From NCBI GenBank assembly GCA_965215365.1, contig CBDCDS010000003.1, forward strand, positions 1,632,001-1,696,000: a stretch of DNA of 64,000 nt, read 5' to 3'. Positions 40,938 to 63,245 of this stretch are shown here, piece after piece (the first letter of the stretch is position 1; each line of letters opens with the position of its first letter). The translations under genes and the position numbers were made by a program. The DNA is from Gammaproteobacteria bacterium (GTDB taxonomy: Bacteria; Pseudomonadota; Gammaproteobacteria; Eutrophobiales; Eutrophobiaceae). Below the pieces are notes generated by a model. The model saw only the letters and a list, made by a program, of their open reading frames with translations. It was not told the origin of the DNA and did not search any database.

Positions 40938-40975
40938 CATGGATGCCCCACAAGAATCAAAAAAGCCTGTCCGGT

Positions 40976-41133
40976 GCAGCAGATTGGTCGAGGGCGACCT
41001 GCTATCGCTGGTTGAAGCGGTATCGTGAATGTGGGCTGAGGGGTCTGGGGACTGCCTCTCGTGCGCCGCGACGGCGGCGTGTGCGGCAGCGGGCACGCCA
41101 GCACGAGCAGCAGCAGGTCTTGCACCTGCGCCA
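40976..41133 (+). pseudogene. IS481 transposase HTH fragment
   Basis: WSRATCYRWLKRYRECGLRGLGTASRAPRRRRV...HEQQQVLHLRQ, closely similar to the transposase at 1798-2853. Confidence 0.88.
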
Positions 41134-41180
41134 ATGCTCTGCTAGACTGACCGCTCTTGTGTAACCTGTCAAGGAGCGCT

Positions 41181-42458
41181 ATGACCACATCGTTCCCGCA
41201 TGATTTCAGTGACGAACGCTACACCGAGGCACTGTTGGGCCTGTTCAAGCCCGGCACCGGCGTGGCCCCGCCCAAGCTCGCCGGGCGCGGTGATGAGACG
41301 AAGGTCTTTGAGCGCCAGCTGTTGATCGACTTGCGCAAGGGATGCGGCCCGGCAGGGGACTTGGTGCTCTTCGGGCCGCGCGGTAACGGCAAGACGGTGT
41401 TGCTCACTGATCTCAGTCGCCGCGCCGCTGAGCGTCAGATTGACGTGGTCACGCTGACTCCTGATGAGATCGATTCCCCGCTGCAGCTAATCAGAAACTT
41501 ATTGCAGCGTCCGCCGTCGACACTGGCGTCGGGCGGGCTCTGGCTCGGGCGCTTGTTGAGGCGGCGCGCACCGCGCACACAGAAGGCCTCGGCGGCGAGC
41601 TTACGCGTGGGAGCGGGCGATCTCAGCGCGGAGCTCAGTGCTGAGCTCAGCGTTGTCTCAGACGATGAGCTCAGGGTGTATGGTGAGGCCAAGCTGACTG
41701 CGCGTTGTCGCGCACAACCGCTGTTGGTCACCGTGGACGAAGCCCATACGCTCGATATCGAGACCGGGCGCCGGCTGCTGAACCTCAGCCAGCAGCTGCG
41801 CACGGCCGATGTCCCGTTCGTCCTCATCTTGGCCGGCACGCCTAATCTTGAAGCGCATCTGGGTAAGATGAGCGCCACCTTCTGGGATCGCTCTGAGATC
41901 CTGCCGATCGGCCGGCTGAGCGCTAAGGCCACGGCCGAGGCTTTAACGACTCCGCTGGCCCAATGGTCGGTGGCTTTCGAGCCGGACGCCTTGGCGGCGG
42001 TGGTGGATGACTCACAGTGTTATCCGTATTTCATTCAGCTTTGGGGGCGGGCGTTGTGTGGCGCCTTGGTCGAGCAAGGGGGGGGGCACACAGTGACCTT
42101 GGGTCTCGTCAAGCAGGCTGCCCCACAGGTCGCGGCACGGCGCCTGCGTTATTATGGGAGGCGATATCTGGAGCTCGAAGATCGTGGCTTGCTCGAGACC
42201 GCGTCGCTCGTCGCCGGCTGTTTCGAGAAGTCCGAGCAGGTGGCCAGGGCGACGCTCAAGGCGGCGTTGGGCGAGGGGCTCGGGTCAGACGCCGAGGCCG
42301 CCATGGCGGTGCTCGGCCAACTCGCCGACTTAGGCTACACCTGGGCGCCTGACGGCGGTCGGGAGATCGAGCCGGGTATTCCGTCGCTGATGAGTCATGT
42401 GCGCGAGGCGGTCGCTGAGGAGGCGATGGATTTTCCAGAACCGCCACCGCGGCCTTAA
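41181..42458 (+). CDS. AAA_16-like P-loop ATPase (intact cargo copy)
   Basis: AAGGAG RBS; FKPGTGVAPPKLAGR, Walker A GPRGNGKT, Walker B VTVDEAH, SQCYPYFIQLWG and PGIPSL. Confidence 0.9.
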   Translation: MTTSFPHDFSDERYTEALLGLFKPGTGVAPPKLAGRGDETKVFERQLLIDLRKGCGPAGDLVLFGPRGNGKTVLLTDLSRRAAERQIDVVTLTPDEIDSPLQLIRNLLQRPPSTLASGGLWLGRLLRRRAPRTQKASAASLRVGAGDLSAELSAELSVVSDDELRVYGEAKLTARCRAQPLLVTVDEAHTLDIETGRRLLNLSQQLRTADVPFVLILAGTPNLEAHLGKMSATFWDRSEILPIGRLSAKATAEALTTPLAQWSVAFEPDALAAVVDDSQCYPYFIQLWGRALCGALVEQGGGHTVTLGLVKQAAPQVAARRLRYYGRRYLELEDRGLLETASLVAGCFEKSEQVARATLKAALGEGLGSDAEAAMAVLGQLADLGYTWAPDGGREIEPGIPSLMSHVREAVAEEAMDFPEPPPRP

Positions 42459-42592
42459 CCCGCAGATATCACCAAGTCGCTTGTTGCCTTGTGCAACATG
42501 ATTGCTCTCAATAAGTTATGGTAACCTCTAAGCCTTCATGATCAACCCCTCACACAGCACAGTCTCATAGGCATTGAACCTGAACAAAAGTC

Positions 42593-42621
42593 TTGACTGT
42601 AGAGTGGAATTGTGTTAAAGT
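42593..42621 (+). promoter_or_regulatory. Sigma70-type promoter of the poly-C secreted gene
   Basis: TTGACT, 17-bp spacer, extended TGn-TAAAGT; similar to the promoter upstream of 29578. Confidence 0.6.
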
Positions 42622-42673
42622 TGCGATGTCGTTCAGCTTCTATACAATCACCCGTTTACTGAGGAGAACGAGA

Positions 42674-43235
42674 ATGAAAATGAAACTTACGGTTACCCCC
42701 CCCCCCCCCCCCCCCCACACGCCCTAGCCGCCTGACGGCACCGGCCACCCTGCTGGTGGCCCTGATGCTGGGACTGGCCGGCACCCTGCCGATGACAACA
42801 TATGCGCAGGTTAATCTGTGCCCGAATGGATTGCTTCAGTTGAATAACATCTATATGACCGTAACCGTGGGTCAGAACCGAGGGTCGACATACAACCCGG
42901 ACACAGCCCAGTTTACGACCGACACGACAAAACATTCGGCCACGGTTACGGTCAGAGAAGAGCAGGCGAATCTCCTTATCACCGGCCGGGGGTACACCTC
43001 TGGCCAATTCCGTTTTGGGATGCAGGGCGAAGGCGAGGCCCTTCTCCACCACGGCGTCATGTGGTCCGCCGGGCGCCTTCACAATGGTCAGTTGTCGGGG
43101 ATTGACATTCCGATCTCTTTCCATAACCTGGAGCCGGGCACAAAGTACGCTGTGGAACTTCTTGTAGAGAATACCAATCTCCACCCTGAGCGGCGCCTAC
43201 TATTCCGGAACTGTTTCCAGACGCCCGCGCCCTGA
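42674..43235 (+). CDS. Secreted hypothetical protein, frameshifted at a C21 tract in the signal peptide
   Basis: GAGGAG RBS and ATG at 42674. MKMKLTVT followed by C21 (42696-42716) hits TAG at 42725; C20 or C23 gives ...PPPP-TRPSRLTAPATLLVALMLGLAGTLPMTTYA/QVNLCPNG. C-terminal FHNLEPGTKYAVEL is FN3-like. Confidence 0.75.
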
Positions 43236-43329
43236 CCCCACGCCCTTCCTGCTGCTAGCGACTATGCTGGCACCTGCGGCGGTGACGGCGCAGATGGTTG
43301 GAGGCAGTGTCTGCCCGTCAGGCACGTTT

Positions 43330-43451
43330 GGTCACCTCTCACAAACACGAGGTGACCGTGCAGCACAAGGATGTGCTGCCAGTAACTGCAAGCACGTAAG
43401 TGCTTGAAAATGAAGGAAATGAAAAATCATACTTTTTCATTATCTCTGAGA
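43330..43451. repeat. Repeat family A, partial copy
   Basis: GGTCACCTCT...GAGGTGACC-GTGCAGCACAAGGATGTGCTGC...AAGCACGTAAGTGCTT-GAAAATGAAGGAAATGAAAAAT. Confidence 0.85.
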
Positions 43452-43596
43452 GACAGTGATGGCGCTCTCGTCCATGGCGTGTGGCTTCACATGGGGACAG
43501 TTCGCAGTGGTCAGCTAGGAACGCACCTTTATGCGGGATAGAGGTGGTCGGTACATCCATGTTACTTTATACTCCTGGTGTTTCCGTGAGTAGAGC

Positions 43597-44115
43597 ATGT
43601 CCGAGAGAGCATTCAAACCGTTAAATATCGCCGTGCTGGTGGTTTCCGATTCGCGCACGGAGAAGACCGACAAGTCCGGGAAACTGCTGGTTTCCAGGCT
43701 GGAGGCGGCGGGACATTGCCTCTATGAAAAGTCTATTGTGCCGGATGACTGCCATCAAATTCGCGCACAGGTGGCGCGCTGGTGCGCCACCTCGGATGTG
43801 GACGCAGTGCTGGCTACCGGCGGCACCGGCGTGACTGGTCGCGACGGCACGCCCGAGGCCGTTGCGACGCTGCTCGACAAGCAAATCGAAGGTTTCGGCG
43901 AGCTGTTCCGCCACCTGTCCTACCAGGAAATAGGCACTTCATCCCTGCAATCACGCGCCTTGGCCGGCGTTGCCAACGGCACATATATTTTTTGTTTGCC
44001 GGGCTCTGCCGGCGCCTGCGCCACGGCCTGGGACAAAATTATCTCGCAGCAACTGGACTATCGTACCCGACCCTGCAACCTGGTGGAACTGATGCCCAGA
44101 CTCAAGGAACACTGA
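43597..44115 (+). CDS. moaB: Molybdenum cofactor biosynthesis protein B
   Basis: IAVLVVSDSR, DKSG, TGGTGVTGRDGTPEA, QSRA, FCLPGS and RPCN. Confidence 0.95.
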   Translation: MSERAFKPLNIAVLVVSDSRTEKTDKSGKLLVSRLEAAGHCLYEKSIVPDDCHQIRAQVARWCATSDVDAVLATGGTGVTGRDGTPEAVATLLDKQIEGFGELFRHLSYQEIGTSSLQSRALAGVANGTYIFCLPGSAGACATAWDKIISQQLDYRTRPCNLVELMPRLKEH

Positions 44116-45110
44116 TGGCACTGGCCGCCGGTCAGGCTCACCGGGCGATACGACTGTGCCGGTCTTGCGGCCGGTTGCCGGGACGTTTGTCAGCGTATCT
44201 TTGTATGACGCTTGCGCTGGTGTGTTTGTTAGCGACGTTCCCGCTGCGGGCGACCGGGTCTTTTACCCTGGCGCAGCCAGTTGACTCGGTGGTCGGCGCC
44301 ATTCGCACTGTTACCGCCCGGCACGAAGACACGCTCCCGGACCTTGCCAGGGCGCATGGCCTGGGTTTCCAGGAAATTAAACTGGCCAACCCGGAGGTGG
44401 ACACCTGGTTGCCAGGGCAGGGCGCCGGGATTGTGCTGCCGACCTGGTATGTGCTGCCCGAGCCGCCCCATGTCGGCCTCGTGCTGAACATACCGGAAAT
44501 GCGCCTGTATTATTTTCCCGCCCAGGAACCGGACCAGGTGGTCACTCATCCGATCGGGGTAGGGCGCCAGGGTTGGGTTACCCCGTATCTCAATACCCGG
44601 ATTATCGAAAAGAAAACCCGTCCTTACTGGTATCCGCCCGCATCAATCCGCAAGGAACACGCCGAGCAGGGTGACCCGCTGCCGACACGGGTGCCGCCGG
44701 GGCCGGATAACCCTCTGGGAGACTATGCGCTGAGATTAGGCTTGCCCGAGTATATTATTCACGGCACCAACAAGCCCTACGGTATCGGCCTGCGGGTCAG
44801 CCATGGTTGCATCCGTTTATACCCGGAAGATATAGCCAGCCTGTACCAGCGGGTGGCGCTGTACACGCCGGTGCGCATCATCAACCAGCCCTACAAAGTC
44901 GGCCGGCGCGGCAATAAACTGTACTTAGAAGCCCATCCCTACCTGGAGGAAGATGCGGCGCAGTTCCAGGGTAGCCTGACCAGCGTGGTTAAAAGCCTGA
45001 TAAAAATTACCGGTGAGGACGCCTACGAGATAGACTGGAAACTGGCACAATCCGCCATCGACCAACGCGACGGCATTCCGGTTGCGATCGGCAGGTTAGT
45101 GGATAATTAA
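44115..45110 (+). CDS. L,D-transpeptidase (ErfK/YbiS/YcfS family) with LysM-like N-domain; start may be 44205
   Basis: ANPEVDTWLP, NIPEMRLYYF, PPGPDNPLG and catalytic IHGTN...SHGCIRL. Confidence 0.93.
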   Translation: MALAAGQAHRAIRLCRSCGRLPGRLSAYLCMTLALVCLLATFPLRATGSFTLAQPVDSVVGAIRTVTARHEDTLPDLARAHGLGFQEIKLANPEVDTWLPGQGAGIVLPTWYVLPEPPHVGLVLNIPEMRLYYFPAQEPDQVVTHPIGVGRQGWVTPYLNTRIIEKKTRPYWYPPASIRKEHAEQGDPLPTRVPPGPDNPLGDYALRLGLPEYIIHGTNKPYGIGLRVSHGCIRLYPEDIASLYQRVALYTPVRIINQPYKVGRRGNKLYLEAHPYLEEDAAQFQGSLTSVVKSLIKITGEDAYEIDWKLAQSAIDQRDGIPVAIGRLVDN

Positions 45111-45243
45111 CCCGCAGCCTGACCCAATCCGGCGCGATCTTCGCATCACTTGGTGAGAGCTGCGGGTTAAGGGTGCCATCTGAAAATTAGAGATGCCTAT
45201 GCAGCACAGGGACGTGCTGCCATTTTTAATCATGCGAGTGATT
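45107..45243. repeat. MITE family B short form (45107-45170) abutting a partial family A copy
   Basis: TTAACCCGCAG...TGCGGGTTAA at the Ldt stop codon, followed by GGGTGCCATCTGAAAATTAGAGATGCC-TATGCAGCACAGGGACGTGCTGC. Confidence 0.82.
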
Positions 45244-45354
45244 CCGACGATGTTATAAAAATGGTGTTACACTGGAGCTTCATGGCACAGGGTTGTACCG
45301 TTTCAAACCAAACATCAGCAAAAAGGGAGATGTAGCTCTCCTGTGGAGGAGATC

Positions 45355-45618
45355 ATGACTGAAAAAACAGATACTCTTGATGACAATATCAATGCATTTC
45401 AGAAGATATCCGATGAGTTACATGAACATCATTTGGGCAAGTTTGTTTTGATGCACAACAGTCAGTTCATTGCATCGTATGACAATTTCGACAATGCAGC
45501 GAGGGCGGCAATAGAGAGGTTTGGCAGAGGCCCTTATCTGATTCGTCAGGTTGGCGCTCCGACTGAAATGACTTTGCCTGCCTCCATTGCTTACCGGCCG
45601 GATTATGCCAATCATTGA
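45355..45618 (+). CDS. Small DUF5678-like protein
   Basis: GGAGGAG RBS; ELHEHHLGKFVLMH...A.ERFGRGPYLIRQVG pattern; AT-rich. Confidence 0.65.
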   Translation: MTEKTDTLDDNINAFQKISDELHEHHLGKFVLMHNSQFIASYDNFDNAARAAIERFGRGPYLIRQVGAPTEMTLPASIAYRPDYANH

Positions 45619-46051
45619 AGCCGGATTTATAAGTGATGATGGTAAACCGGACCCGGCTGCATTGGTTCGGTTTGGCCCGACTATTAAGGTTTTCGCAGGA
45701 CACTTGAAATCTGGCGGCAGTTCCAATTCGGTTACGGATGAATTTGTTCACGCATTGATTGACACCGGTGCCACTGAAAGCTGTATCGACATCTCTTTAG
45801 CGCAAAAGCTCGAACTCCCTGCTGTAGACAGAATAACTATTTCCGGTGTGGGTGGGACAAAGGTACACGATATGTACATGGCGCAAATTCATATACCGCA
45901 GCTTAATTTTACGCAATATGGCAAATTCTCTGGTGTGCAGTTGGCAGGCGGGGGGCAGCAACATTACGCGCTGTTAGGCAGGACTTTTTTGCGAGGAACC
46001 ATAATGATATATGACGGAATAAGGGGTCAGGTTACTGTAACCACTTCGTAA
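45605..46051 (+). CDS. Retropepsin-like (clan AA) aspartyl protease
   Basis: ALIDTGATES catalytic motif, ISGVGG flap and LLGRTFL; overlaps the upstream gene. Confidence 0.85.
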   Translation: MPIIEAGFISDDGKPDPAALVRFGPTIKVFAGHLKSGGSSNSVTDEFVHALIDTGATESCIDISLAQKLELPAVDRITISGVGGTKVHDMYMAQIHIPQLNFTQYGKFSGVQLAGGGQQHYALLGRTFLRGTIMIYDGIRGQVTVTTS

Positions 46052-46192
46052 AAGTAGCAAATATTGCTCCCGGCAGGCCGCCTACGAACACCATCGTCGC
46101 CACCAGAACAACGCTCGTATTCATTCAATCTTTCTCCTCAGGGCTTGCTGCCCGGATTAACAATAAACCAAGCAGCCTGACCCAACCATCTG

Positions 46193-46303
46193 CTACTCGG
46201 CGGGCGGGGCGGCGCGCTTTTTGCGGGTGCGATGGGCCAGATAGCTGAGCGCTGCACCGCCGGCGAGCAAGGTCAATAGCGGGGCCAGTATGTTCCAGGC
46301 CAT
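46193..46303 (-). CDS. 36-aa single-TM peptide with basic tail
   Basis: GGAG RBS; MAWNILAPLLTLLAGGAALSYLAHRTRKKRAAPPAE; ATG overlaps (TGATG) an upstream two-TM frame. Confidence 0.5.
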   Translation of the reverse strand: MAWNILAPLLTLLAGGAALSYLAHRTRKKRAAPPAE

Positions 46304-46493
46304 CAGTTCTCCAGGCTGCCGGCCACGCTCAGGGCCAGACCGCTTATCACGATCACCACGCCAGGCCCGGCCAGACTGGCATCGAGCGCCCCGGCAATCA
46401 GGCCGGTGGCCGCCACGATGGCGCCGGTCTGGCGCAGGCCGGCGCCGATATGGTCGGGTTGATATTCACGGGTGAAGTATAATAGAGGCGCCC

Positions 46494-46775
46494 TTATTTC
46501 TGCATCGCCTTTTCAAACATGCGATCCAGCTTGCTTGAATTTTCGCTGCAGCAGGCATTTGCCGCGTCCGCCGCCGCCTGGGCCGCCCTGGCGGCATCCA
46601 TAGCCTGATCGGCTGCTGCCGTAGCGCTATCTGCTGCTGCCGCCGCCGCTGCCGCTGCCGCCTGTGCGTTTTCTGCCATGGATTTAGCCTCATTCACTTG
46701 CTCGACCGTTGCGCATCCCCCCAACAGCATCAGCACGGCTGCAAAAAATGTGACTTTGGTTAAAGTGTTTTTCAT
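46494..46775 (-). CDS. Lpp/OprI-like alanine-zipper outer membrane lipoprotein
   Basis: GGAG RBS; lipobox LLGGC, poly-Ala zipper and C-terminal KLDRMFEKAMQK ending in Lys; close to the L,D-transpeptidase. Confidence 0.9.
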   Translation of the reverse strand: MKNTLTKVTFFAAVLMLLGGCATVEQVNEAKSMAENAQAAAAAAAAAADSATAAADQAMDAARAAQAAADAANACCSENSSKLDRMFEKAMQK

Positions 46776-46877
46776 ATCATATTCTCCAGTTTGCCCGGTT
46801 ACAGTAGTGGATTCGAGCGGGTATTGTAGCAAATTATCAGGTTAAAACAAGCAGTAGTGGCGGCAGTTGTATTGTCT

Positions 46878-46938
46878 GGCCCGCAGATCTCACCCGGTGA
46901 TGCGAAGATCGCGCCGGATTGGTGCTGCCTGCGGGCTA
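46878..46938. repeat. MITE family B, short form
   Basis: GCCCGCAGATCTCACCCGGTGATGCGAAGATCGCGCCGGATTGG...TGCGGGCTA; overlaps the TAG stop of 46936..47301. Confidence 0.85.
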
Positions 46939-47301
46939 TCGTCCCATTCTGCCGGACGGTCGCTGGTAGCGATGTTCATGATGGCTGTCGACAAACTCCA
47001 ACAAAGACTGCTCCAGTCCGCTCATCGGGTTGGCCTCACAATAATCATCTATCCAGACCATAATCTCATCTAAGCTCAGGTTGCCGGAGATACTGTAGGT
47101 GTCCGGGACCATGGCGTTATAGGCGGTTAAATACCCCATAATGTAGGTCCGGTAAGGGTCTTTGCCATCGGTAGTGCGCTCCTTGAGATAGCGGTAGCAG
47201 GACTTCTGTCCTGCCCCCCAGATCGCATAGTTGCCTGACTTGTCCATGCCCTGGGCCGGCAGCCACAAGGCCGCGCTCAACGCGCAGCAGACAATCCGCA
47301 T
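46936..47301 (-). CDS. Secreted hypothetical protein with two Cys (Rap1a/HdeA-like pattern)
   Basis: GAGG RBS, signal peptide; GAGQKSC...YIMGYLTAYN...WIDDYCEANP. Confidence 0.75.
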   Translation of the reverse strand: MRIVCCALSAALWLPAQGMDKSGNYAIWGAGQKSCYRYLKERTTDGKDPYRTYIMGYLTAYNAMVPDTYSISGNLSLDEIMVWIDDYCEANPMSGLEQSLLEFVDSHHEHRYQRPSGRMGR

Positions 47302-54100: not shown

Positions 54101-57100
54101 GTGGATGAGTTCGTTGATCTCTACCACAGTCGCGGCATCACTCATTTCGGCGGCGGTCATCTGGCGCGTCACTGGAAAGGGCAGCCGGGGACTTACGCGT
54201 ATGGCCGGGCCAACGGGCTGGTGCTGCTGACCCGTGATAGCGTCAGCGGCGAGACGCTCGTCGACAGAGGGGACATTTCCACGTCGCTGAGCAATGAGAA
54301 CAGCCATCCCACCAGCCGGAACTGGTTAAATGCCTACCTGGCGGCGCTCAATACTCACCTTAAAAGTAAGACCTTACCAGGCGGCACGAAGTTATTCGAC
54401 CGCTGGTATCAACATGTCTGGGATGAGGCGTCCACGTCCAGCCAGTGGGCGTATCTGGCCGATAAAATTGAGCAGCACGCGCCCGGCTTGGAGACCATCG
54501 ACGCATTGGCTCGCGAAACGACGTTTAACGGCCTTAAAACCGCGGCCAACGTGGGCAAGGTCAAGAACTGGGTGCCCCTGCTCGATGCTGTTTACAAGGA
54601 AGACACAAAGGCTTTTTTCAGGGGTCAACGGCAGGCTGGCAAAAAGGTATTCGCTTATGTCGTCGGCACGATTCCCAAGGCGCCCGACGAGCTCAATCGA
54701 GAGTTGGGCAACCATTTGCTGGCGATGACGATGATGTCCTGGTATCTGAACCGGGAGCAATTAGACGGCTACCTGCACTGGGCGTTGAACGCGTGGAGCT
54801 ACGGGTTTCACAGGGGTGACACCACCATCACCTACCCGGATGTAGCCGGCAGGACTTTGAAGTCGTCGTTGCGCTATGAGTCCGAGCGCGGCGGACTGGA
54901 GGACTGGGAGCTGCTAACGCTACTGCGTGACAGCAATGATGCCAAGGCCGATGAGCTCATCGCAGAAGTGCTGCCAGCGACCGGGCTGGGCTATACCCAG
55001 GATGTGTCGCTGTACCGCAGCGTGCGTACCGAGTTGCTGGGGGCCCTCACCGGCGCACCGGGGAGATTTACGGCGACGCCAGGCGACGGGCAGGTGACGC
55101 TCACCTGGGCTGATCTTTCTGACGACACCATTACCCAATACCAGTATCGTCAGGGCGCCGGCACCCCCGTCACTTGGGGCGATTGGGCGGGCGTTCCCAA
55201 CAGCTCGGCCACCACCACCTCGCACACGGTGACGAAACTGACCAACGGCACGGCCTACAGCTTTGAAGTGCGCGCCGTGAGGGGGGCGACGCCCGGCCCG
55301 GCCTCGGCTGTCGTGAGCGCCACCCCCGGCGCCCTGCCGGAGCTGTCCATTAACAACGCAGCAGTGACGGAAGGGGGCACGGCATATTTTACGGTGACCC
55401 TGTCGAAGGCGCGCACCGCCAATGTCACGGTACAGGCCGCCACCTCGGCCGGCCCGGCCACGGCGGGCAGCGACTATACGGCCAAGACGGCGACATTAAC
55501 CATTGCGACCGGCAGCACCAGCGCCACCTTTGCGGTATCGACGACTGCCGACAGCATTGCGGAGTCCAGCGAGACGTTCAAAGTCACTCTGAGCAAGCCC
55601 AACGGTGGCGCCACCATCAAGTCCGGCGCCGGGGTAGGCACGGCCACCTTGTACGATGGCGGCGGCAGCGTGTTTGTCAATGATAATGACAGCGCCGTTA
55701 ACTACGAGAATGGCGGCAGCTCAAGCGGTGTTAAATGGACGGACGATACTGGTCGTAACACAAGCGCCTTTAACAACTACAATAAAGACGCCTACGTCAC
55801 CAACAGGCCGGGCGCTTATTTTGAATACATGTTTACCGGCACCGGCGTGGATTTTATCTCTGAGTCCCACGCTGGCCACGGTGAGGTTGACATCTATATC
55901 GACGACGCCAAGGTGGCGCGCGTGTCGCTGTACAATGCCACTCGCGTCGGTAAGGTGCTGGCCTACAGTGTGCGCGGGTTGAGTCTTGGGGAGCACACCA
56001 TCAAGGGCGTGAATGTGGACAGTGGCACTCCCAGCAATTATTTAGTGGTCGATGGCTTTTTTGTGTACGCCCCCTTAGACTTCGTCACCTGGCACTTGCC
56101 TCGTGAGCTGCGGTATATGAAGGGTGAAGCGATATTGGCCCCGACCCGGCTGCCGCGGGTCGATGGCGGCACGGGGACGGTGACTTATGCCTTAACACCG
56201 ACGCTGCCGACGGGCCTGCAATGGGACCCCAAGGAACGCACGATTTCAGGCACCCCCACCGCAGATAAGGCGCGCACGCAATACACCATGACGGCGACCG
56301 ATGCGGCCAGTCGCACTGCCACTTATACCTTCCACCTGACGGTCGCCGCCGCCGACAAAAAGCCCACCTTCGGCAGTAAGACGCAGGCCGACCTGCTGCT
56401 GAAAAGAGGCACGGCCATGTCTACCGTCACACTACCGGAAGCCACCGACGGCGATGGCACGCTGACCTATCAGTTATTGCCGTTGAAGTGGAGTAACATG
56501 GGCTACAACCAGGGGGTACGAGAGAACAACCAACCCTTGGACTACGCCGGGGTGGCCAACCTGCCGGCGGGTGTGAGCTTCAATGCCACCACCCGCGTCC
56601 TCTCGGGCACGCCCACGGCGAACTGGACACGCGCGCTCTATACCTTAGTCGCCACAGACACCGATGGCGACACGGCAGCGCTGAACTTCCATGTGGCAGT
56701 AGTGACCGCACTGACCCCGGCCACCGGCTCGAGCACCCTGGAGGTATGGACGGATGATGCGCTGAGCCATGTCAACCGCGATGCCACCAAGCCCAATTCC
56801 CCGTCGACGGACATTGATTTACATGCGGCGCGCAATGAATATGAGAGCGGCCAGATAGTGCTGCGCAGCGATGCGGATTTGACCATCACCGAGGTGGCGT
56901 TTGACGACCTCACCGATGGCAGCAACACGATTGCTAAGACCCACCTTGACTACCGGTTTGTAGAATACCACGTGCCGGTGATGCCGACCCGGACGACCCA
57001 GCTGCTCTACCCGGCCAATAATCGCCCTGATCCGTTGTCCAATGCCCGCTCGATTGTGGTGCCGGCGAACGTCACCCAACCCATCTTAGTGACGGCGTAT

Positions 57101-60100
57101 GTCCCCAAGGGGCAGGCGGCGGGGACTTATACCGGCACGGCGACGGTGAAGGTCAAGACGGCCCAGGGGAACGACACCAAGGAGGTGCCCTTGAGCGTTA
57201 AGGTCTATGCGGTGCAGATTCCCGATGCCAAGGACAGCGAGTTCTTACAGTACAACTGGACGGAGACAAACATGTACTCTATCCGCAATGAAGAGGACAT
57301 GGGGCGCTCGTACTACGGGATTGACAAGTACTCCGATGACTGGTGGGGCTTAATGGGCAACATGGCCGATACCATGTCCAAGCATCGTCAGAACATGACC
57401 ATTGCCTGGACGGTGGCACTGCTGCGCGACGGCGGCACTAAGGCCAAGGCCGATGGCACGTATGAGTGGCAATGGGGGCTGTTCGATAAGTTCATCGACA
57501 CTTATAACCAGCGCGGCATGACCCACTTCGGCGGCGGGCATTTGTCGTTGCACTGGACCGGGCAGCCCGGGAGTTACAATATCCAGCATGCCCTCCAAGT
57601 GGCGCGCCTTGCGCCCGATGCGAACGGTGAGACACGCATCGCCGGCGCCCTGGTGCCGACCTCGACGAGCAATGCCGACGACGAGCGCACGGTGGCCCGG
57701 GATTGGCTCAATGCTTATCTGACGGCGCTGAATACCCATATTAAGGCCAAGACCTTGATGGATGGCGTCACCACCCTGCGCAGCCGCTGGTTTCAGCATC
57801 TCGGCGATGAGCCGCACAAGGACGAGCATGTCCAACAATGGGGCTATATGGCGGACACGCTCAAGGTCAAGGTGCCGCAAGTGCGCAACTTAGATGCGAC
57901 GCATGATGGCACAGCAAAACTCTTGCAGGATGCTTACAAGCCAAAAGTGACGGCCTGGAGTCCTTATCTCGACGACTTTGACCGGCGCAAAGACTTATTT
58001 GCCCAACAGCAACAGGCCACCAAGCCGGTGTTTGTCTACGTGATGCTGATTCCCCGTGAACAGGAGGACTATAACCGCCTGTTCGCCAACCACCTGGTAT
58101 CGACTTCCACGCTGTATTGGTATTACTTCCGCCATAATGTGGACGGCAATTTGCACTGGGCGCTGAACGTGTGGTCCATCGGGCCGGATGGCCGCTCTAA
58201 AGGCGATACCCACATTGTCTATCCGGACATCGGCGGGCGCACGCTGCGCTCATCGCTGCGCTATGAAGCCGAGCGTGGCGGGCTGGAGGACTTGGAACTG
58301 TTGAAGCTGTACAAAGCGACCTCTGCCAGCGCCGCCAACACACTGGCTGAGAAGCTCACCACCACGACCCGCACCAACCACAACAAGGATGTGTCAACGT
58401 ACCGCACCGTGCGTACCGAGTTGCTGGAGGCTGTAGCGCCGCCCCCCGTCGCCGCCGTCACCATCGCCGCTACCGACACCACCGTCACCGAAGGCGATAC
58501 CAGCGCCACGGCGACCTTCACGGTAGTACTGGACGCCGGGCCGTCCGCCGATGTCACCGTCACCGTCACCGCACCCACTGGCTTAGAGCTCGACGGCCCG
58601 GACAGCGCCACCACCTTCACCTCCAGCGAGGCGCTGACCTTCACCGACAGCACCTGGAGCACCGCCCAGACCGTCACCGTGCGCGCCCCCGACGACAGCA
58701 CCGACAGTCCCAGTCAACCGGAACTGACCGTCACCTACGCCACCACCTCGACCGACAGCGACTACAGTGGCCTGACCGGCGATGCCGCCACCGTCACCGT
58801 CACGGATAATGACGCCACCGAGGTCACCTTAGCCGGTAGCGCCGGGGATGTCACCGAGGGCAACACCAAGGAGTTCACCGTCACTCTGGGTCGCGGTCTG
58901 GTCAATGGCGAGACGCTGGCCGTACCGATGACCTTCGGCGGTGATGCGACGCAGGGCACGGACTACACGACGGCGTGCGAGTCACCGCTTCCGACCGGGG
59001 TAACCTGCGCGAACCTGGACATCGGCAACGCGGCGGTGACCTTTACCGGTGCGAGCGGGCGCACGACGGCGAAGACGGTGACGCTGACCTTAACAGCGAC
59101 CCCCGACAACACCGCGGAGGTCGGTGGAGAGAGTGTGACCATTGGGTTAGGCACGCTTAACGCCCGCTCTGGCACCGGTCTCAATGGCGGCGCTTCGGGC
59201 ACCGACAGTCTGGCTGACTTTGACATCATCGATCCAGACACCACCGCGCCGACGGTTGAGATCACCGGCGTGCCTGAGAAAATTAACGCCCGTGACCCGT
59301 TCACGGTGACCTTTACCTTCTCTGAAGCCGTCACTGGCTTTGCTGCCGATGACATCAGTGTCACCAACAACGCCAACAAAGGCACGTTCACGGAGACCAG
59401 TGCCACGGTCTATACCCTCACGGTCACGCCCACCGCCGATGCTGATGTGAAAGTCACAGCGCGCGCCAATACCGCCACCGATGGCGTGAACACCGGCCCG
59501 GCCAACGCCGTGAGCGACACCGCCATCTGGGATGCCAGTGTCCCGACCGTGACCATCACCGGCGTGCCTGCTGAGATTCTTAACCGTGACCCGTTCACGG
59601 TGACGTTCACCTTCTCCGAAGACGTCACCGGCTTTGCTGCCGACGATGTCAGCGTCACCAACGGGGATAAGAGTGCATTCGCCGGCAGTGGCGCCAGTTA
59701 CACTCTCGCCGTCACCCCCAACGCCAACGCCGATGTGACCGTCGGGGTCGCCGCCAATGCCGCCAGTGACGGTATTAACACCGGCCCGGTCTCAATGGTG
59801 GCCCAGACCGCCGAGTGGGATGTGGATGTGTCGTTCTCCACGAACGCCGCCAGCATCACCGAAGCCAACGGCGCCGAGGTGTCCCTCACCGTGCGCCTGA
59901 CCTCGGCGCGCGCGGCTGCCACGGTGGTGTATATTCAATACCAGGATATCACCGCCACACGCGCCGGCAATGCCGACTACACCGGTAGCCCGACCTCGAT
60001 CACCCTCCCCGCCGGGGACACCCGCGCCACGCTGACCATCCCCATTACCAACGATGATGCCACCGAGTCCACCGAGACCTTCTTAGTGCGCCTGCTCGAT

Positions 60101-60586
60101 ACGCAACTGCCGACCGGTGTCACCTTGGGCAGCCCGCGCGAGGTGACCGTGACCATCACCATCACCGATGATGACGCCCCACCGGCAGCACCGGGTGCGC
60201 CCACCGGCTTGACCGCCACCGCCGGCGATAGGCAAGTGGTGCTCGCCTGGACGGATCCGTCCAACGCCGACATCACCGCTTGGGAAGTACGCCAGGGCAG
60301 TGGCAGCCCGCTGAGCTGGGGTAGCTGGACGGAAATTGCCAGCAGCACGGCCACGACCACGACGCACACCGTCACCGGCCTGACCAACGGCACGGCTTAC
60401 AGCTTTGAGCTGCGCGCCAAAGCCGGCACGGTCATCTCTGCTCACGCTGCCCGTAGTGGCGCTGGCGCACGAGCCGTTATGGGTGCCGGTCACCCCCGCC
60501 GGCGTCAGCCCGTGCGAGCTGCCCCGGGCGCACTGCCCGCTCTCGTTGCGGCGTATCCACAGGCACCTCAGCGCAGCAGTACTTGA
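48131..60586 (+). CDS. Giant secreted multidomain glycoside hydrolase/adhesin: two GH123 (DUF4091)-like modules, discoidin, Calx-beta, He_PIG Ig, Big and FN3 domains; C-terminus truncated
   Basis: Hydrophobic leader. Duplicated RNEYESGQ...W/G-DE...LHWALN.W...GDT.I.YPD...SSLRYE.ERGGLED.ELL; Calx-beta (VTEG.TAYFTVTLS, DGTATAGSDY); FN3 (GDGQVTLTW, LTNGTAYSFE); PFTVTFTFSE Big repeats. Confidence 0.88.
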   Translation: MSMIRMMYRTAGFAHRPALAGLLLSVGVVLAVSGLLRAGPVATPGARLTAGDLTVSMDETGLITGLTAPSGRDYHVNEPPTALLSLIVEDKPTDLPSAGTAAHYRPLRWRFTPGTPQLGETARGTYTFDFAEHLSVTVAFVEKPGYATLAVTALHNPAGKDVRHILWGPLSTSITESVGETVGVVRGRDFAMGLFGTNAKTLGGWARAYPATGLKSLAAGEDTAGDVRTVAQDFATAAAVRTVPGSILQAHTQDYTQGRMVEVAPTGGQEGRRRWVPALTGEFATAGQLVGSQVALFGVAGTDAAGVTHASRREALYAKVLARIGAIEVGEGMPHPQLDKVWAKQALRANAPYLLLEDLDSHNLDTALRWANELGWDTVAKDACWGVFARGGDFPISDAFGGSDNALRSVIERAQSRHTTLGVDIRSNWLPAPYATTHLGGLAAAQHATLAAPVTATATTLTVAPLPGGDLQPGFATTGYVVIGTELMGYTETTPVAENLVLSGLTRGVDATLAQGHAADAPVKRVIRKTQCGEYLAGLTLMRGRVAERLIEVLDLGLGGVSLSGAEALAADGYGALAANLVMDKIYRALAGHDNLITELSVLTPYTWHVNTRAGAVNQDRRILSSGLAAPQVSYPWGAQVSARRNYLARPMLGRWHIPDANGWRWALGKAAALDAGLAYVGRVRDAARHDAPLRREIRHWRYAALAGAFDAPNRLVMQEQGAYFKLDRVSHTGSIGPTWKLSDWAPLGAAGGQRRNSRYLAPQLRGFPTANLARDAEVTVSGALAPEFDGAHALDGFTVTGHDGGAGEWALAAGAREKWIELTWETPRRVREIILFDRASPQQNVRAGSLTLTRADGTTTTQRVDALPLTGGAKRIALSDQALVKARFTLHATQGAAPGLAEFAVLGPAPVYQVSNLATGAVVSGVAAGQGARITDGVIAPGAEPAATLTGAFAQLDLGGLHYIGGLTVWHAFGDGRRYQDVVFELADNPAFTNSTIVFNNDADNSLGLGAGTDAPYTETAAGKQVLFAPTPARYLRLWSQGNTVNDANHLVEVEVYGAGHGTAAATLSASSTAPGDLRAAIDGHPDTAIDLGTGPQYLQLDLGTPRQVNSLVVLREGDLRAYRNVVYQLSNDADFADTVTTVFHNDYDAVHGLGLKEPSQGEYAETPNGHYVRFAPRPARYVRLYSNGSDRDRHNRYHEVLVGTEHATRLPTPTPAWAPAESAPADNTARADNAAQQGAPPGAPIPGPAARGGGGLGARALPTARQTALELSINNVAVTEGATAYFTVTLSKAHTADVTVQAATSDGTATAGSDYTAKTATLTIDAGATSATFAVATTADSIAESSETIKVTLSNSSGGATIKSGAGVGTATLYDGGGGFVNDNDSAVSYENGSNGTGVAWFYGARHGGDFNSYDNDGYVTSRPGAYFEYTFTGTGVDFISETNKDHGEVDLYIDGAKVARVSLNSATRVGKVLAYSVRGLSLGEHTIKGVKVGSGTPSNYLVVDGFFVYAPLDFVTWHLPRELRYMKGEAILAPTRLPRVDGGTGTVTYALTPTLPTGLQWDPKERTISGTPTADKARAQYTMTATDAASRTATYTFHLTVSATDNKPTFGNKTQDDLLLKKEAAMTTVTLPAATDGDGSLTYQLLPLKWTNIGGDYVPQPANTPLDYTGVANLPAGLSFDIDARELSGTPTEKWTRGQYTLVATDADGDTAALSFHLGVVDTLTPATPSSVLKMWTADALTRINDDATGPNSPSTRIDLHAVRNEYESGQVVLRSNADLTITEVAFTDLTSGSNTIAKSHLNYHFAEYHVPVMPTHPNITGEKHRPIYPYFKRRPDPLSNARSIVVPANVTQPIFVKVYVPKGQAAGTYTGTVTVKVNTAQGNDTKTVSLSVKVYAVEIPDAKDSGHLQYNWANTNIYSIENTSDFGFEYYGIAKYSDEWWELMGNMADTMVAHRQNVALLWTVSQLRDGGTKVNADGTYDWNWGLVDEFVDLYHSRGITHFGGGHLARHWKGQPGTYAYGRANGLVLLTRDSVSGETLVDRGDISTSLSNENSHPTSRNWLNAYLAALNTHLKSKTLPGGTKLFDRWYQHVWDEASTSSQWAYLADKIEQHAPGLETIDALARETTFNGLKTAANVGKVKNWVPLLDAVYKEDTKAFFRGQRQAGKKVFAYVVGTIPKAPDELNRELGNHLLAMTMMSWYLNREQLDGYLHWALNAWSYGFHRGDTTITYPDVAGRTLKSSLRYESERGGLEDWELLTLLRDSNDAKADELIAEVLPATGLGYTQDVSLYRSVRTELLGALTGAPGRFTATPGDGQVTLTWADLSDDTITQYQYRQGAGTPVTWGDWAGVPNSSATTTSHTVTKLTNGTAYSFEVRAVRGATPGPASAVVSATPGALPELSINNAAVTEGGTAYFTVTLSKARTANVTVQAATSAGPATAGSDYTAKTATLTIATGSTSATFAVSTTADSIAESSETFKVTLSKPNGGATIKSGAGVGTATLYDGGGSVFVNDNDSAVNYENGGSSSGVKWTDDTGRNTSAFNNYNKDAYVTNRPGAYFEYMFTGTGVDFISESHAGHGEVDIYIDDAKVARVSLYNATRVGKVLAYSVRGLSLGEHTIKGVNVDSGTPSNYLVVDGFFVYAPLDFVTWHLPRELRYMKGEAILAPTRLPRVDGGTGTVTYALTPTLPTGLQWDPKERTISGTPTADKARTQYTMTATDAASRTATYTFHLTVAAADKKPTFGSKTQADLLLKRGTAMSTVTLPEATDGDGTLTYQLLPLKWSNMGYNQGVRENNQPLDYAGVANLPAGVSFNATTRVLSGTPTANWTRALYTLVATDTDGDTAALNFHVAVVTALTPATGSSTLEVWTDDALSHVNRDATKPNSPSTDIDLHAARNEYESGQIVLRSDADLTITEVAFDDLTDGSNTIAKTHLDYRFVEYHVPVMPTRTTQLLYPANNRPDPLSNARSIVVPANVTQPILVTAYVPKGQAAGTYTGTATVKVKTAQGNDTKEVPLSVKVYAVQIPDAKDSEFLQYNWTETNMYSIRNEEDMGRSYYGIDKYSDDWWGLMGNMADTMSKHRQNMTIAWTVALLRDGGTKAKADGTYEWQWGLFDKFIDTYNQRGMTHFGGGHLSLHWTGQPGSYNIQHALQVARLAPDANGETRIAGALVPTSTSNADDERTVARDWLNAYLTALNTHIKAKTLMDGVTTLRSRWFQHLGDEPHKDEHVQQWGYMADTLKVKVPQVRNLDATHDGTAKLLQDAYKPKVTAWSPYLDDFDRRKDLFAQQQQATKPVFVYVMLIPREQEDYNRLFANHLVSTSTLYWYYFRHNVDGNLHWALNVWSIGPDGRSKGDTHIVYPDIGGRTLRSSLRYEAERGGLEDLELLKLYKATSASAANTLAEKLTTTTRTNHNKDVSTYRTVRTELLEAVAPPPVAAVTIAATDTTVTEGDTSATATFTVVLDAGPSADVTVTVTAPTGLELDGPDSATTFTSSEALTFTDSTWSTAQTVTVRAPDDSTDSPSQPELTVTYATTSTDSDYSGLTGDAATVTVTDNDATEVTLAGSAGDVTEGNTKEFTVTLGRGLVNGETLAVPMTFGGDATQGTDYTTACESPLPTGVTCANLDIGNAAVTFTGASGRTTAKTVTLTLTATPDNTAEVGGESVTIGLGTLNARSGTGLNGGASGTDSLADFDIIDPDTTAPTVEITGVPEKINARDPFTVTFTFSEAVTGFAADDISVTNNANKGTFTETSATVYTLTVTPTADADVKVTARANTATDGVNTGPANAVSDTAIWDASVPTVTITGVPAEILNRDPFTVTFTFSEDVTGFAADDVSVTNGDKSAFAGSGASYTLAVTPNANADVTVGVAANAASDGINTGPVSMVAQTAEWDVDVSFSTNAASITEANGAEVSLTVRLTSARAAATVVYIQYQDITATRAGNADYTGSPTSITLPAGDTRATLTIPITNDDATESTETFLVRLLDTQLPTGVTLGSPREVTVTITITDDDAPPAAPGAPTGLTATAGDRQVVLAWTDPSNADITAWEVRQGSGSPLSWGSWTEIASSTATTTTHTVTGLTNGTAYSFELRAKAGTVISAHAARSGAGARAVMGAGHPRRRQPVRAAPGALPALVAAYPQAPQRSST
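51940..58430 (+). repeat. Internal ~3.4-kb tandem duplication within the giant gene
   Basis: About 51940-55050 and 55340-58430 are collinear (offset 3402 at 52561/55963). About 52550-52940 is nearly identical to about 55950-56340. Confidence 0.9.
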
Positions 60587-60745
60587 GACCGATCAGGCGG
60601 CGCTGGATTACTGGCAGCGGCGCCTGCGCATCTGGTACAGCTTTAACCCCGACTACCGCCACCACCTGCATCCGCACCGCTAGACCGCCCTGTCTTATTC
60701 GTTGTTCTTCCCATGGCGCCCAAGGCCGTCCCGACGGCGCCGCCG

Positions 60746-61455
60746 ATATGGTACAGCTGGGCTCGCCGCACCGGATGAGGACTATCTACCGTACCAACAT
60801 CGAGGTCGGCGTGGCACACGGGCGCTATCGCCGTCAGGTCGATAACGCCCAAAATCGCCCGTACTGGAAGTACGAGGCCATCATGGACGCCGCCACCCGA
60901 CCCGCCCACGCCGCCATGCACGGCAAAGTGTTCCGGGCCGACGATCCGATCTGGAAAACCCACTACCCGCCGAACGGATTCGGCCGCCGCTGCTCGGTTA
61001 TGGCATTGACCGAACAGGAAATGGAAAAAGAAGGACTGAGCGTCTCGGACAGCGCCGGACACCTGCGCCCGGTCGAGCAGCAGGCTGGAGTCAACCAACG
61101 CACCGGTGAGGTCGTCACCGTGCGCGGCACACAGTACCGGTTCACCGGCACCGATGGGCAGGCACGAGTGATGATCCCGGACCCGGGCTGGAACTACAAC
61201 CCCGGCTATGCGGGCGGCGCCACCACCCGGCGCCTGCCTAAGAAGATAACGCCACAACAGACCTTAGCCGACGAGCTGGGCAAGATCAGTGTCCCCAAAC
61301 TGGAAGGGGCGCCGCCGGCTATCGCCCGCGCGCAGGTGCAGGACTTGTTACAGGCACCGCGATTCGACGCCGCAGTACAGGCGCGCACCGTCGGCAACTG
61401 GCCGATGGCGGACATCTCCACGGGCTCCCCGGCACAATCCGCTATGGATAGCTAG
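60746..61455 (+). pseudogene. Mu-like prophage head morphogenesis protein (gpF) fragment
   Basis: QLGSPHRMRTIYRTN, RPYWKY.AIMD.ATRPAH, HYPPNGFGRRCSV (usual CRC altered) and PDPGWNYNPG; N-terminus missing. Confidence 0.85.
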
Positions 61456-61627
61456 GTTCTACGGCCACCCTGGGCTCTACCTCACTTCCCAAGACACAGT
61501 ATAGAACAATTCATACCAGGAGATCAACCATGATGTTCAGGTTCAATGCCTATGAGACTGTGCTGTGTGAGTGGTTGATTATGCTCCGTCTGCAAATGAA
61601 CAAGCACCGCCTTCCGGCGCTCAGAGG

Positions 61628-61790
61628 TTAACCCGCATATCTCACCAAGTGATGCGAAGATCGCACCGGATTTTTTACGCCTGCGGGTGCCTGCGAACGA
61701 AAGCATAGCGGTAGCTGAGGTTACCATAACTTATTGAGAGAAATCATGTTTCACAAGGCAACAAGCGACTTGGTGATATCTGCGGGTTAA
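61628..61790. repeat. MITE family B copy inside the IS481 derivative
   Basis: TTAACCCGCATATCTCACC...GGTGATATCTGCGGGTTAA; overlaps the ATPase stop. Confidence 0.85.
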
Positions 61791-63048
61791 GGCCGCGGTG
61801 GCGGTTCTGGAAAATCCATCGCCTCCTCAGCGACCGCCTCGCGCACATGACTCATCAGCGACGGAATACCCGGCTCGATCTCCCGACCGCCGTCAGGCGC
61901 CCAGGTGTAGCCTAAGTCGGCGAGTTGGCCGAGCACCGCCATGGCGGCCTCGGCGTCTGACCCGAGCCCCTCGCCCAACGCCGCCTTGAGCGTCGCCCTG
62001 GCCACCTGCTCGGACTTCTCGAAACATCCGGCGACGAGCGACGCGGTCTCGAGCAAGCCACGATCTTCGAGCTCCAGATATCGCCTCCCATAATAACGCA
62101 GGCGCCGTGCCGCGACCTGTGGGGCAGCCTGCTCGACGAGACCCAAGGTCACTGTGTGGCCCCCCCTTGCTCGACCAAGGCGCCACACAACGCCCGCCCC
62201 CAAAGCTGAATGAAATACGGATAACACTGTGAGTCATCCACCACCGCCGCCAAGGCGTCCGGCTCGAAAGCCACCGACCATTGGGCCAGCGGAGTCGTTA
62301 AAGCCTCGGCCGTGGCCTTAGCGCTCAGCCGGCCGATCGGCAGGATCTCAGAGCGATCCCAGAAGGTGGCGCTCATCTTACCCAGATGCGCTTCAAGATT
62401 AGGCGTGCCGGCCAAGATGAGGACGAACGGGACATCGGCCGTGCGCAGCTGCTGGCTGAGGTTCAGCAGCCGGCGCCCGGTCTCGATATCGAGCGTATGG
62501 GCTTCGTCCACGGTGACCAACAGCGGTTGTGCGCGACAACGCGCAGTCAGCTTGGCCTCACCATACACCCTGAGCTCATCGTCTGAGACAACGCTGAGCT
62601 CAGCACTGAGCTCCGCGCTGAGATCGCCCGCTCCCACGCGTAAGCTCGCCGCCGAGGCCTTCTGTGTGCGCGGTGCGCGCCGCCTCAACAAGCGCCCGAG
62701 CCAGAGCCCGCCCGACGCCAGTGTCGACGGCGGACGCTGCAATAAGTTTCTGATTAGCTGCAGCGGGGAATCGATCTCATCAGGAGTCAGCGTGACCACG
62801 TCAATCTGACGCTCAGCGGCGCGGCGACTGAGATCAGTGAGCAACACCGTCTTGCCGTTACCGCGCGGCCCGAAGAGCACCAAGTCCCCTGCCGGGCCGC
62901 ATCCCTTGCGCAAGTCGATCAACAGCTGGCGCTCAAAGACCTTCGTCTCATCACCGCGCCCGGCGAGCTTGGGCGGGGCCACGCCGGTGCCGGGCTTGAA
63001 CAGGCCCAACAGCGCCTCGGTGTAGCGTTCGTCACTGAAATCATGCGG
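61787..63048 (-). pseudogene. AAA ATPase copy, 5'-truncated and frameshifted
   Basis: Identity to copy 1 begins at CCGCATGATTTCAG, so the start codon is lost. G7CC replaces G9C at about 62158-62166, splitting it into ORFs 62149..63063 and 61787..62227. Confidence 0.88.
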
Positions 63049-63053
63049 ACACC

Positions 63054-63245
63054 ATGAAATCAAACGACACGCACCTGGAGCAGGCCATCGAGAGGCTGAA
63101 GTCTCAGATGGAAACGCAGCAACGGTACATAGATGATTTAGAACTGCGACTGACTAACCTGACCGTTGACCTCTATGGGCATCTGGCCAAATGGAAAACT
63201 GGCCAGCGAAACAAAGATGTAGGCCGACGGCAGGACTCTCGATGA
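63054..63245 (+). CDS. Small coiled-coil hypothetical protein, separated from its RBS by the element
   Basis: Reconstructed empty site CAGGAGATCAA-CCATGA-AATCAAAC places AGGAG in front of MKSNDTHLEQAIERLKSQMETQQRYIDDLELRL. Confidence 0.6.
   Translation: MKSNDTHLEQAIERLKSQMETQQRYIDDLELRLTNLTVDLYGHLAKWKTGQRNKDVGRRQDSR

Follow-up and report, generated by a model that had tools for sequence, protein, structure and literature searches.

MIC231 of Bacillus cereus is reportedly one example of a mobile insertion cassette (MIC). Cassettes of this kind lack a transposase, are bounded by the repeats of an insertion sequence (IS) and are moved in trans, as outlined for the TnXax1-related MICs of Xanthomonas (PMC4337579). 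Members of the IS481 family are summarised as mostly producing 6-bp target duplications (PMC10045372) and may carry cargo, an instance in the outline of its source being the IS481-family element TnRErm46 of Rhodococcus equi, which carries cargo and has 6-bp NCTAGN duplications (PMC6794481). We describe here two loci in a 64,000-nucleotide stretch of a gammaproteobacterial genome (G000:C3:1632001-1696000, referred to below as the window; the genome is 2.73 Mb in three contigs with 58% G+C) which are probably insertions of one non-autonomous IS481-type cassette, that is, a MIC, whose passenger comes from the Orc1/Cdc6-like AAA+ ATPase family. A first-pass annotation of the window had not recognised this combination, but cargo-bearing IS481 transposons and transposase-less cassettes flanked by IS repeats had already been described, and the element is known in kind as a non-autonomous, cargo-carrying IS481-type element; what is unusual is its vestigial left end of 6 to ~13 nt. 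No IS481-type MIC with an ATPase was found in the titles and abstracts listed by the literature searches, although this is not proof of absence.

Insertions and target duplications

The two loci, referred to here as copy 1 and copy 2 (Table 1), are true insertions with 6-bp target duplications, as the first-pass annotation had proposed. Copy 2 is flanked by a perfect CCATGA duplication, and excision of the element together with one of these repeats yields AGGAGATCAACC-ATG-AAA, comprising the ribosome-binding site (RBS) and start of the open reading frame (ORF) at 63054–63245. The copy-2 site is uninterrupted in a prophage (L097) of another genome of the same genus (G006), where it reads ...CAGGAGATCAACCATGAAA... 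and is followed by a different small gene, and the left flank of copy 2 has 90.8% identity to this locus over 130 nt, a match which extends to the base adjoining the element. The joining of the RBS to the ATG at 63054 upon excision, which had been predicted from the window itself, is therefore found intact in a relative. When the flanks of copy 1 are joined, they match a paralogous site at C3 ~621.35 kb with 92% identity over 196 columns and exactly one 6-bp gap, and because this single gap falls at the junction we regard the imperfect AAAGCC/AAAGTC pair as a real duplication in which one side was later mutated. The empty-site counterparts are a paralogous site for copy 1 and the orthologous prophage site of G006 for copy 2; a paralogous empty site for copy 2 is not present in its own genome.

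The assembly of copy 2 was checked using short-read contigs, rather than raw reads, from four public runs (X1, X2, X4 and X5) which may include the assembly's own sample. A 1077-nt contig crosses the TGTCCG end of copy 2 and covers its first 33 nt (X1, X2 and X4, or three of the four runs), and the span across the junction at the right repeat is 38 nt in X5 but only 30 nt in X1 and X2. As short-read contigs cross both junctions, the concern that copy 2 might be a mis-assembled duplicate of copy 1 can be set aside.

It should be noted that copy 2 lies within a Mu-like prophage (60583–64000, with head-morphogenesis and virion-morphogenesis-like ORFs) to which L097 is homologous. The small gene found right after the common RBS–ATG in G006 differs from the one in this genome, and this position is a variable gene slot.

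Structure of the two copies

Copy 1 and copy 2 share 99.25% identity over 1341 bp, with seven differences in ~1330 common bases when the two are aligned directly. Both begin TGTCCG and terminate in ...TCTCATAGGCATTGAACCTGAACA, giving cassette termini of TGTCCG...GAACCTGAACA, and the right repeat is complete, agreeing at 21 of 24 nt with its counterpart in the IS resident in this genome, whose right end is TCTCATATGTATTGAACCTGGACA. Directly inside this repeat, both copies retain the decayed 3' end of a transposase gene (the last codons). All three of these features had been picked out earlier, as had the retention in copy 1 of the helix-turn-helix (HTH) part of a transposase upstream of the ATPase gene. 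This fragment corresponds to IS positions ~244–412. It aligns with the active IS over 159 nt (86.8% identity) and with an older remnant at C3 1752.9 kb over 95 nt (90.5% identity), and the 76-aa ORF of copy 1 has Pfam matches to HTH_32, HTH_28 and LZ_Tnp_IS481. The only coding remnants in the cassette other than the ATPase are this 76-aa chimeric HTH fragment and the decayed 3' codons, and there is no transposase gene.

Neither copy is the parent of the other, because each misses a stretch which the other keeps: copy 2 is without the first 225 bp of copy 1, and copy 1 is without 125–133 bp between the ATPase stop codon and the right end which are kept in copy 2 and beside A7, the nearest of the chromosomal ATPase paralogs (numbered here with the prefix A). 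The ATPase gene of copy 2 is a pseudogene, missing the promoter and the first 4–5 codons and frameshifted at a G-run.

This G-run within the ATPase gene has nine letters in copy 1 (G9, 42075–42083), leaving the frame open, and in copy 2 (62154–62162) it is G7 followed by C, with a broken frame. Between the ATPase stop codon and the IS tail lie small repeats, of which the genome has more than 100 copies, some of them in arrays with a 243-bp period, and in several of the paralogs one of these starts right at the stop codon.

The resident IS and its target preference

The resident IS481-type IS is represented by 26 full copies in the genome, 22 of which give an unbroken full-length transposase match, and by ~70 IS-derived intervals overall. 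The termini TGTCCGGGTTCAG...GAACCTGGACA (TGT...ACA) are found in all 26 full copies, and exact duplications of 6 bp (five copies), 5 bp (11 copies) or 4 bp (two copies) flank 18 of them; with 6 bp at both cassettes, this is what had been expected of an IS481-family element, namely TGT...ACA ends and short duplications. The transposase has Pfam matches to HTH_32, rve_3 and rve with a weak match to LZ_Tnp_IS481, and the best NCBIfam model is transpos_IS481 (E 9e-53) with a score of 179.6 bits that is under the curated cut-off of 224, followed by IS3 at 84 bits.

The words duplicated by the resident IS vary and do not follow NCTAGN, the target of IS481 proper and of ISRe46, which is a feature of some IS481 members and does not define the family. 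The preference seen here is instead for TTG(A/C) just past the duplication on the right-end side. TTG is found at +5 to +7 past the right end in 17 of the 26 full copies, compared with 4 of 26 for the left end and 5% of random positions (binomial p ~2e-16), and the right-end words are typically TTGAC, TTGCA or TTGTC; genome-wide, T occupies +7 in 54 of 81 right-end-like sites. The right flanks of the cassette (42587–42598 and 61522–61533) fit this rule in the same orientation, with AAAGTC followed by TTGACT at copy 1 and TCATGG followed by TTGATC at copy 2. As the latter word is the complement of a ribosome-binding region, the preference is for the word and not for a working promoter. No description of asymmetric TTGAC targeting was found in the titles and abstracts listed by the literature searches, which again is not proof that there is none.

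Both copies of the cassette resemble the resident IS in the length of their duplications and in their asymmetric target, which makes mobilisation in trans the best reading. We infer from this footprint that the resident IS transposase probably mobilised the cassette in trans, and we consider this well supported; it agrees with the earlier description of the element as an IS481-type derivative which carries a passenger and lacks a transposase. Mini derivatives of the resident IS of 49 bp and 588 bp carry 5–6-bp duplications, indicating that non-autonomous forms do move in this genome.

The 49-bp minis at C3:764924-764972 and 1880311-1880359 consist of the left and right repeats only, each with a 5-bp duplication, and are the smallest form with both repeats. 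The word GGGGGCGAGTAGTTAC or its complement adjoins truncated IS copies and the A7 flank (C3 ~1752685, ~265300, ~584600 and ~650850), and may be the end of another mobile element which cuts into the IS.

IS insertions beside the ATPase paralogs

The genome contains 15 paralogs of the ATPase gene, those other than the cassette copies having 33–78% protein identity to copy 1. The first-pass annotation had the element spreading an ATPase gene, but only two of the 15 paralogs, which are also the only recent duplicates, belong to the cassette, one of these is truncated and frameshifted, and the family is also multi-copy in genomes without the transposase. IS remnants adjoin the upstream side of A2–A4, A7, A11 and A15 (see Table 1 for the parts retained), with the right end placed 5–6 nt from TTGAC or TTGCGG in the promoter region. 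These remnants are 93–97% identical to the active IS and the ATPase genes differ by 18–33% in DNA; as the remnants have stayed close to the active IS while the genes have diverged, we consider them to be recent and independent insertions, and the ATPase promoters to be a hot spot for the IS. By an automated measure, IS-derived DNA is found no more than 260 bp away from eight of the 15 paralogs, compared with 6% of random windows, and two further IS-adjacent cases (A2 and A10/A11) were recognised by eye only. On the downstream side, A7 is followed by a right-end stub and transposase tail that is ~90% identical to the copy 2 stub (a count made on printed letters), and A9 ends in a 17-nt right-end stub.

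The cassette had been explained earlier as an IS in which the transposase core was replaced by the ATPase. Since the IS repeatedly lands upstream of ATPase promoters and a stub is also found downstream of A7, a gene trapped between two IS copies and then subjected to deletions fits better. The resident IS would home on TTGAC words, including the conserved −35-like box of the ATPase promoters, and an IS of the older lineage upstream plus another downstream would have trapped the ATPase gene. Deletions would then have removed the transposase gene and the inner ends, leaving a remainder which could move as a unit, and microhomology deletions (at CAG and CCG) would have cut the left end to ~13 nt in copy 1 and to 6 nt in copy 2; these would either have preceded or have accompanied the moves which produced the present copies.

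We also note that A2–A4 form a tandem triplication at G000:C3:265340-271254 with a period of 2267 bp, in which each unit is a truncated IS plus an ATPase paralog. A 92-nt leader upstream of A7, A9, A11 and A15 (C3 586.3, 664.8, 1319.2 and 2541.7 kb) is 86–92% conserved compared with 67–82% for the coding sequences, which suggests a possible regulatory leader or protein-binding site. An Rfam scan of positions 40500–43500 of the window, covering copy 1 and its flanks and not this type of leader, found no family.

The vestigial left end

The left end had been given as ~6 bp in both copies, and this stands for copy 2 (6 nt) but not for copy 1, which may keep ~12–13 nt. Copy 1 starts with TGTCCGGT and continues at IS position 244, with CAG shared at the joint, and its alignment to the left repeat TGTCCGGGTTCAG (TGTCCGG-TGCAG on the cassette side) has 12 matches in 13 positions with one gap. 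In copy 2, TGTCCG joins ATPase codon 5–6, and as CCG is common to the gene, only TGT is certainly derived from the IS.

We favour an element which moved with its left end already reduced to a stub over one which was eroded after insertion, and we infer from the footprint that movement with such short left ends may have taken place. If so, one intact end plus a terminal TGTCCG could suffice, perhaps with the two ends processed side by side in a circular junction, a mechanism known from IS3-family work. More tentatively, and as a possibility we would not call probable, an IS481-type transposase may need only one intact end, a good right repeat being paired with a partner that keeps only TGTCCG (6–13 nt). 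An IS which seeks out TTGAC words (−35 boxes, for example) in a single orientation, and so parks beside genes, might then pick these up, and this would provide a route to a cassette which requires neither a second full repeat nor an accessory protein.

A number of observations weigh against our account of the cassette. Both left ends of the cassette are without the inner block TGAGACTC which is common to the two IS repeats, and should for this reason bind transposase poorly, and the right repeat differs from that of the resident IS at three of 24 positions. The genome contains no copy in which a complete left repeat accompanies the cassette ATPase, so the parent is hypothetical, nor any intact transposase of the older lineage; the remnant of that lineage at C3 1752.7–1753.2 kb is without both tips and gives no old left repeat. 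The short-read contigs of the four runs, from which rare forms are dropped and which limit such a search, contain no circle junction and no empty-site joint at copy 2. Upstream of A7, A11 and A15, matching duplications are missing from all of the IS remnants, indicating a more tangled history, and there are only two insertions of the cassette.

The strongest alternative is that the element was still complete when it moved (having a full left repeat, or being an autonomous composite with a transposase of its own) and that the left sides were eroded in place later, in which case the short ends would be uninformative about what the transposase needs. Internal deletions of the IS are common in this genome (1-224/648-679/1031-1134, 1-440 plus 17 nt, and minis of ~50 and ~130 bp), the deletion joints of both copies are microhomologous (CAG in copy 1 and CCG in copy 2) in a manner which fits ordinary slippage, and copy 1 has lost 125–133 bp on its right side as well. 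Against this, erosion would need two independent deletions to start 6–13 nt from the tip and yet spare the tip and the duplication, a coincidence of about one in a thousand if the starts span a few hundred bases (an estimate and not a computed value), and there is no trace of a fuller copy in the genome. We therefore consider erosion in place unlikely, and prefer movement with the vestigial left end.

Among the 81 right-end-like sites, a search for other elements combining a right end with a TGTC[CT] left end and duplications produced few candidates beyond the ATPase copies and ordinary minis. The best of these, of 638 bp at C3 969539–970176, has only ~13 nt in common with the IS and a twin copy with other limits, and was attributed to chance. 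Exact-match scans of JGI metagenomes gave no hits for the copy-1 left end and none for the right-end tail.

The passenger protein and its distribution

The ATPase matches Pfam AAA_22 and AAA_16 but no NCBIfam model at the cut-off, and PADLOC returned only a marginal match to mad8 (E 6e-4, 17 bits); no specific name for the protein came from PADLOC, NCBIfam, a PDB sequence search or the protein atlas. In an alignment of 64 sequences, GxxGNGKT and DEAH are invariant and a C-terminal EPGIPSLM is conserved. The AlphaFold model (pLDDT 88.4, pTM 0.85) was used in a Foldseek search where the top ten matches are all Orc/Cdc6 proteins (E ~2e-9 for archaeal Orc1/Cdc6) and the best TM-scores (0.57/0.67) belong to the archaeal ATPase 2qen, with 2fna also matched; for archaeal Orc1/Cdc6 and the archaeal ATPases together, E is 1.7e-9 to 1e-6 and identity 12–17%. 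Our best guess from the predicted structure is that the protein may act in the cell as an ATP-dependent DNA-binding switch, and fifteen copies per genome argue against a role at the replication origin.

A search of 31 genomes including this one (G000) identified the ATPase family in 16, with up to 16 matches each and a patchy, often multi-copy distribution within the genus. No close ortholog of the cassette ATPase was found among the 23 genomes of the genus, where the best match is 58% identical, and P0001 and P0002 are 82%-identical orthologs. At 35–45% identity, several copies each are present in metagenome-assembled genomes (MAGs) labelled Spirochaetia, Vicinamibacterales, Azotimanducaceae and Candidatus Spongiihabitans (loci L017–L095), and this multi-copy occurrence across phyla suggests horizontal spread or a common selective pressure in one habitat. 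The extent of the repeated unit was inspected in five genomes, comprising three MAGs of Spirochaetia, one gammaproteobacterial MAG and Ca. Spongiihabitans; it is approximately the ORF itself, with tandem arrays in Ca. Spongiihabitans. In a phylogenetic tree the G000 paralogs are placed among those of related contigs, and this intermixing indicates that the expansion is older than this species.

These observations bear on a second alternative, in which the ATPase assists the IS as an AAA+ helper, or in selecting targets, in the manner of IstB, TnsC/TniB or MuB, and the loci are the remains of a two-gene transposon which has fallen apart. DDE transposases of the superfamily to which the IS belongs often act with AAA+ ATPases, the protein matches AAA_22, eight of the 15 paralogs are beside IS-derived DNA, and A12 adjoins an intact IS. 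However, the Foldseek matches are led by Orc1/Cdc6, 2qen and 2fna, and no transposition ATPase is found among the 44 matches listed (up to rank 50). The genomes G006, G008 and G018 have 11, 10 and 6 ATPase matches, respectively, and no transposase matches, and none of the 79 ATPase loci examined in other genomes has the IS transposase within 3 kb, where the repeated unit is just the ORF. Of the full IS copies, 26 in all, a single one is within 260 bp of an ATPase gene, namely that next to A12 in the window, and the adjacency of IS and ATPase is explained by the TTGAC target rule. We regard a helper role as very improbable: the ATPase is cargo and not transposition machinery, and the IS has contributed little to its multiplication.

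Finally, the least credible of the alternatives, and one largely refuted, is that copy 2 stems from an assembly error, or from recombination or gene conversion among paralogs, and that its flanking repeats arose by chance. Although the genome is rich in repeats and the homopolymer runs which differ between the copies may be long-read errors, short-read contigs span both copy-2 junctions, a perfect 6-bp repeat would arise by chance about once in 4096, the restored RBS–ATG is matched in G006, and the insertion follows the IS target word.

Features of the window

The features discussed here are listed in Table 1, together with the IS remnants upstream of ATPase paralogs elsewhere in the genome. 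A small secreted-protein gene lies downstream of copy 1 and has a run of 21 C just after its start (42696–42716). In its paralog at C3 ~621.46 kb this run is three letters shorter, and it may be either a phase-variable tract or a homopolymer error in the assembly.

Table 1. Positions of the cassette copies, the resident IS and associated features (window positions; IS positions are given for remnants outside the window).
Feature	Position	Strand	Basis or remark
Resident full-length IS481-type IS, 1134 bp; transposase 1798–2853	1773..2906	-	likely transposase source in trans
Distant ATPase paralog A12 (~34% identity)	3090..4292	+	~180 bp from left end of window IS, divergently transcribed
Copy-1 target duplication, left: AAAGCC (one change from AAAGTC)	40962..40967	.	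6-bp gap exactly here against paralogous empty site
Cassette copy 1, 1619 bp	40968..42586	+	copy comparison, flank alignment
Vestigial left terminus TGTCCGGT	40968..40975	+	with next 5 nt, 12/13 match to left repeat TGTCCGGGTTCAG, one gap
Older-lineage IS481-type transposase gene fragment (HTH region)	40976..41138	+	nucleotide identity, Pfam, alignment
ATPase leader with RBS, common to paralogs A2–A4	41139..41180	+	
Intact ATPase gene, 425 aa; AAA_22/AAA_16; predicted Orc1/Cdc6-like fold, C-terminal winged helix	41181..42458	+	Pfam, predicted structure
Small repeat of ~70 bp directly after stop codon	42455..42524	+	>100 genome copies
Decayed last transposase codons and diverged right terminal repeat	42537..42586	+	
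Copy-1 duplication, right: AAAGTC, then TTGACT	42587..42592	.	
Copy-2 duplication CCATGA, right-repeat side	61528..61533	.	
Cassette copy 2, 1518 bp	61534..63051	-	copy comparison, short-read contigs
Right terminal repeat and ~80 nt transposase 3' tail; tail common to stub downstream of A7	61534..61614	-	
Small repeats between ATPase stop codon and IS tail	61615..61786	-	short-read joint 61583 to 61717 with 8 letters between, the copy-1 form
ATPase pseudogene	61787..63045	-	G7 compared with G9 in copy 1
Vestigial left terminus TGTCCG, fused to ATPase codon 5–6	63046..63051	-	
Second CCATGA; contains ATG of ORF 63054–63245	63052..63057	.	
A7 upstream remnant: IS positions 1-224/648-679/1031-1134			
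A11 upstream remnant: 50-bp left-plus-right mini form			
A15 upstream remnant: ~130 bp form			
A2–A4, tandem triplication: IS positions 1-440 plus last 17 nt			

Comparison with known systems

The genome offers a natural example of how a plain IS may turn a chromosomal gene into mobile cargo, with the stages of full IS, promoter-parked IS, deletion remnants and a cassette at two sites all present together. If the vestigial left end was indeed used, this would set a much lower limit on the end that an IS481-type transposase needs and would bear on gene capture, including that of resistance genes. The orientation-specific preference for TTGAC merits a specialist's attention.

The cassette resembles MICs, as these are outlined in the source, in having a passenger without a transposase, repeats of a resident IS or transposon, target duplications and presumed mobilisation in trans (PMC4337579). 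Set against the same outline, it is unlike them in that the ends are IS481-type, one end is a 6–13-nt vestige and not a full inverted repeat, the cargo is Orc1/Cdc6-like and pieces of transposase are found on both sides. With TnRErm46, in the features summarised for that element, it shares TGT... ends, 6-bp duplications and cargo placed between the ends, but TnRErm46 is described there as autonomous (having the ISRe46 transposase) with an NCTAGN target, whereas the cassette is without a transposase and its IS prefers N5–6 followed by TTGAC (PMC6794481).

Closer to hand are the deletion derivatives of the same IS (49 bp, 588 bp and others), which are of the miniature inverted-repeat transposable element (MITE) type. 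These have the same ends, 5–6-bp duplications and dependence on the resident transposase, but keep both repeats and carry no gene. The passenger, for its part, can be compared with archaeal Orc1/Cdc6 proteins and the 'archaeal ATPase' group (2qby, 1w5t, 2v1u, 2qen and 2fna), with which it would share, judging from the model, the AAA+ core, Walker A (GPRGNGKT), Walker B (DEAH), lid and C-terminal winged helix. It differs from these in being only 12–17% identical, bacterial and multi-copy (15 per 2.7 Mb), and it has no known link to replication origins and no family name beyond AAA_22/AAA_16.

Mobilisation of adjacent DNA using one good end and a surrogate end has been described for ISEcp1 and for one-ended events of IS3-family elements. 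The cassette is like these in having one intact end and a second which is barely recognisable, but this second end starts with an authentic TGTCCG and is not a random surrogate, and it may have served as an end.

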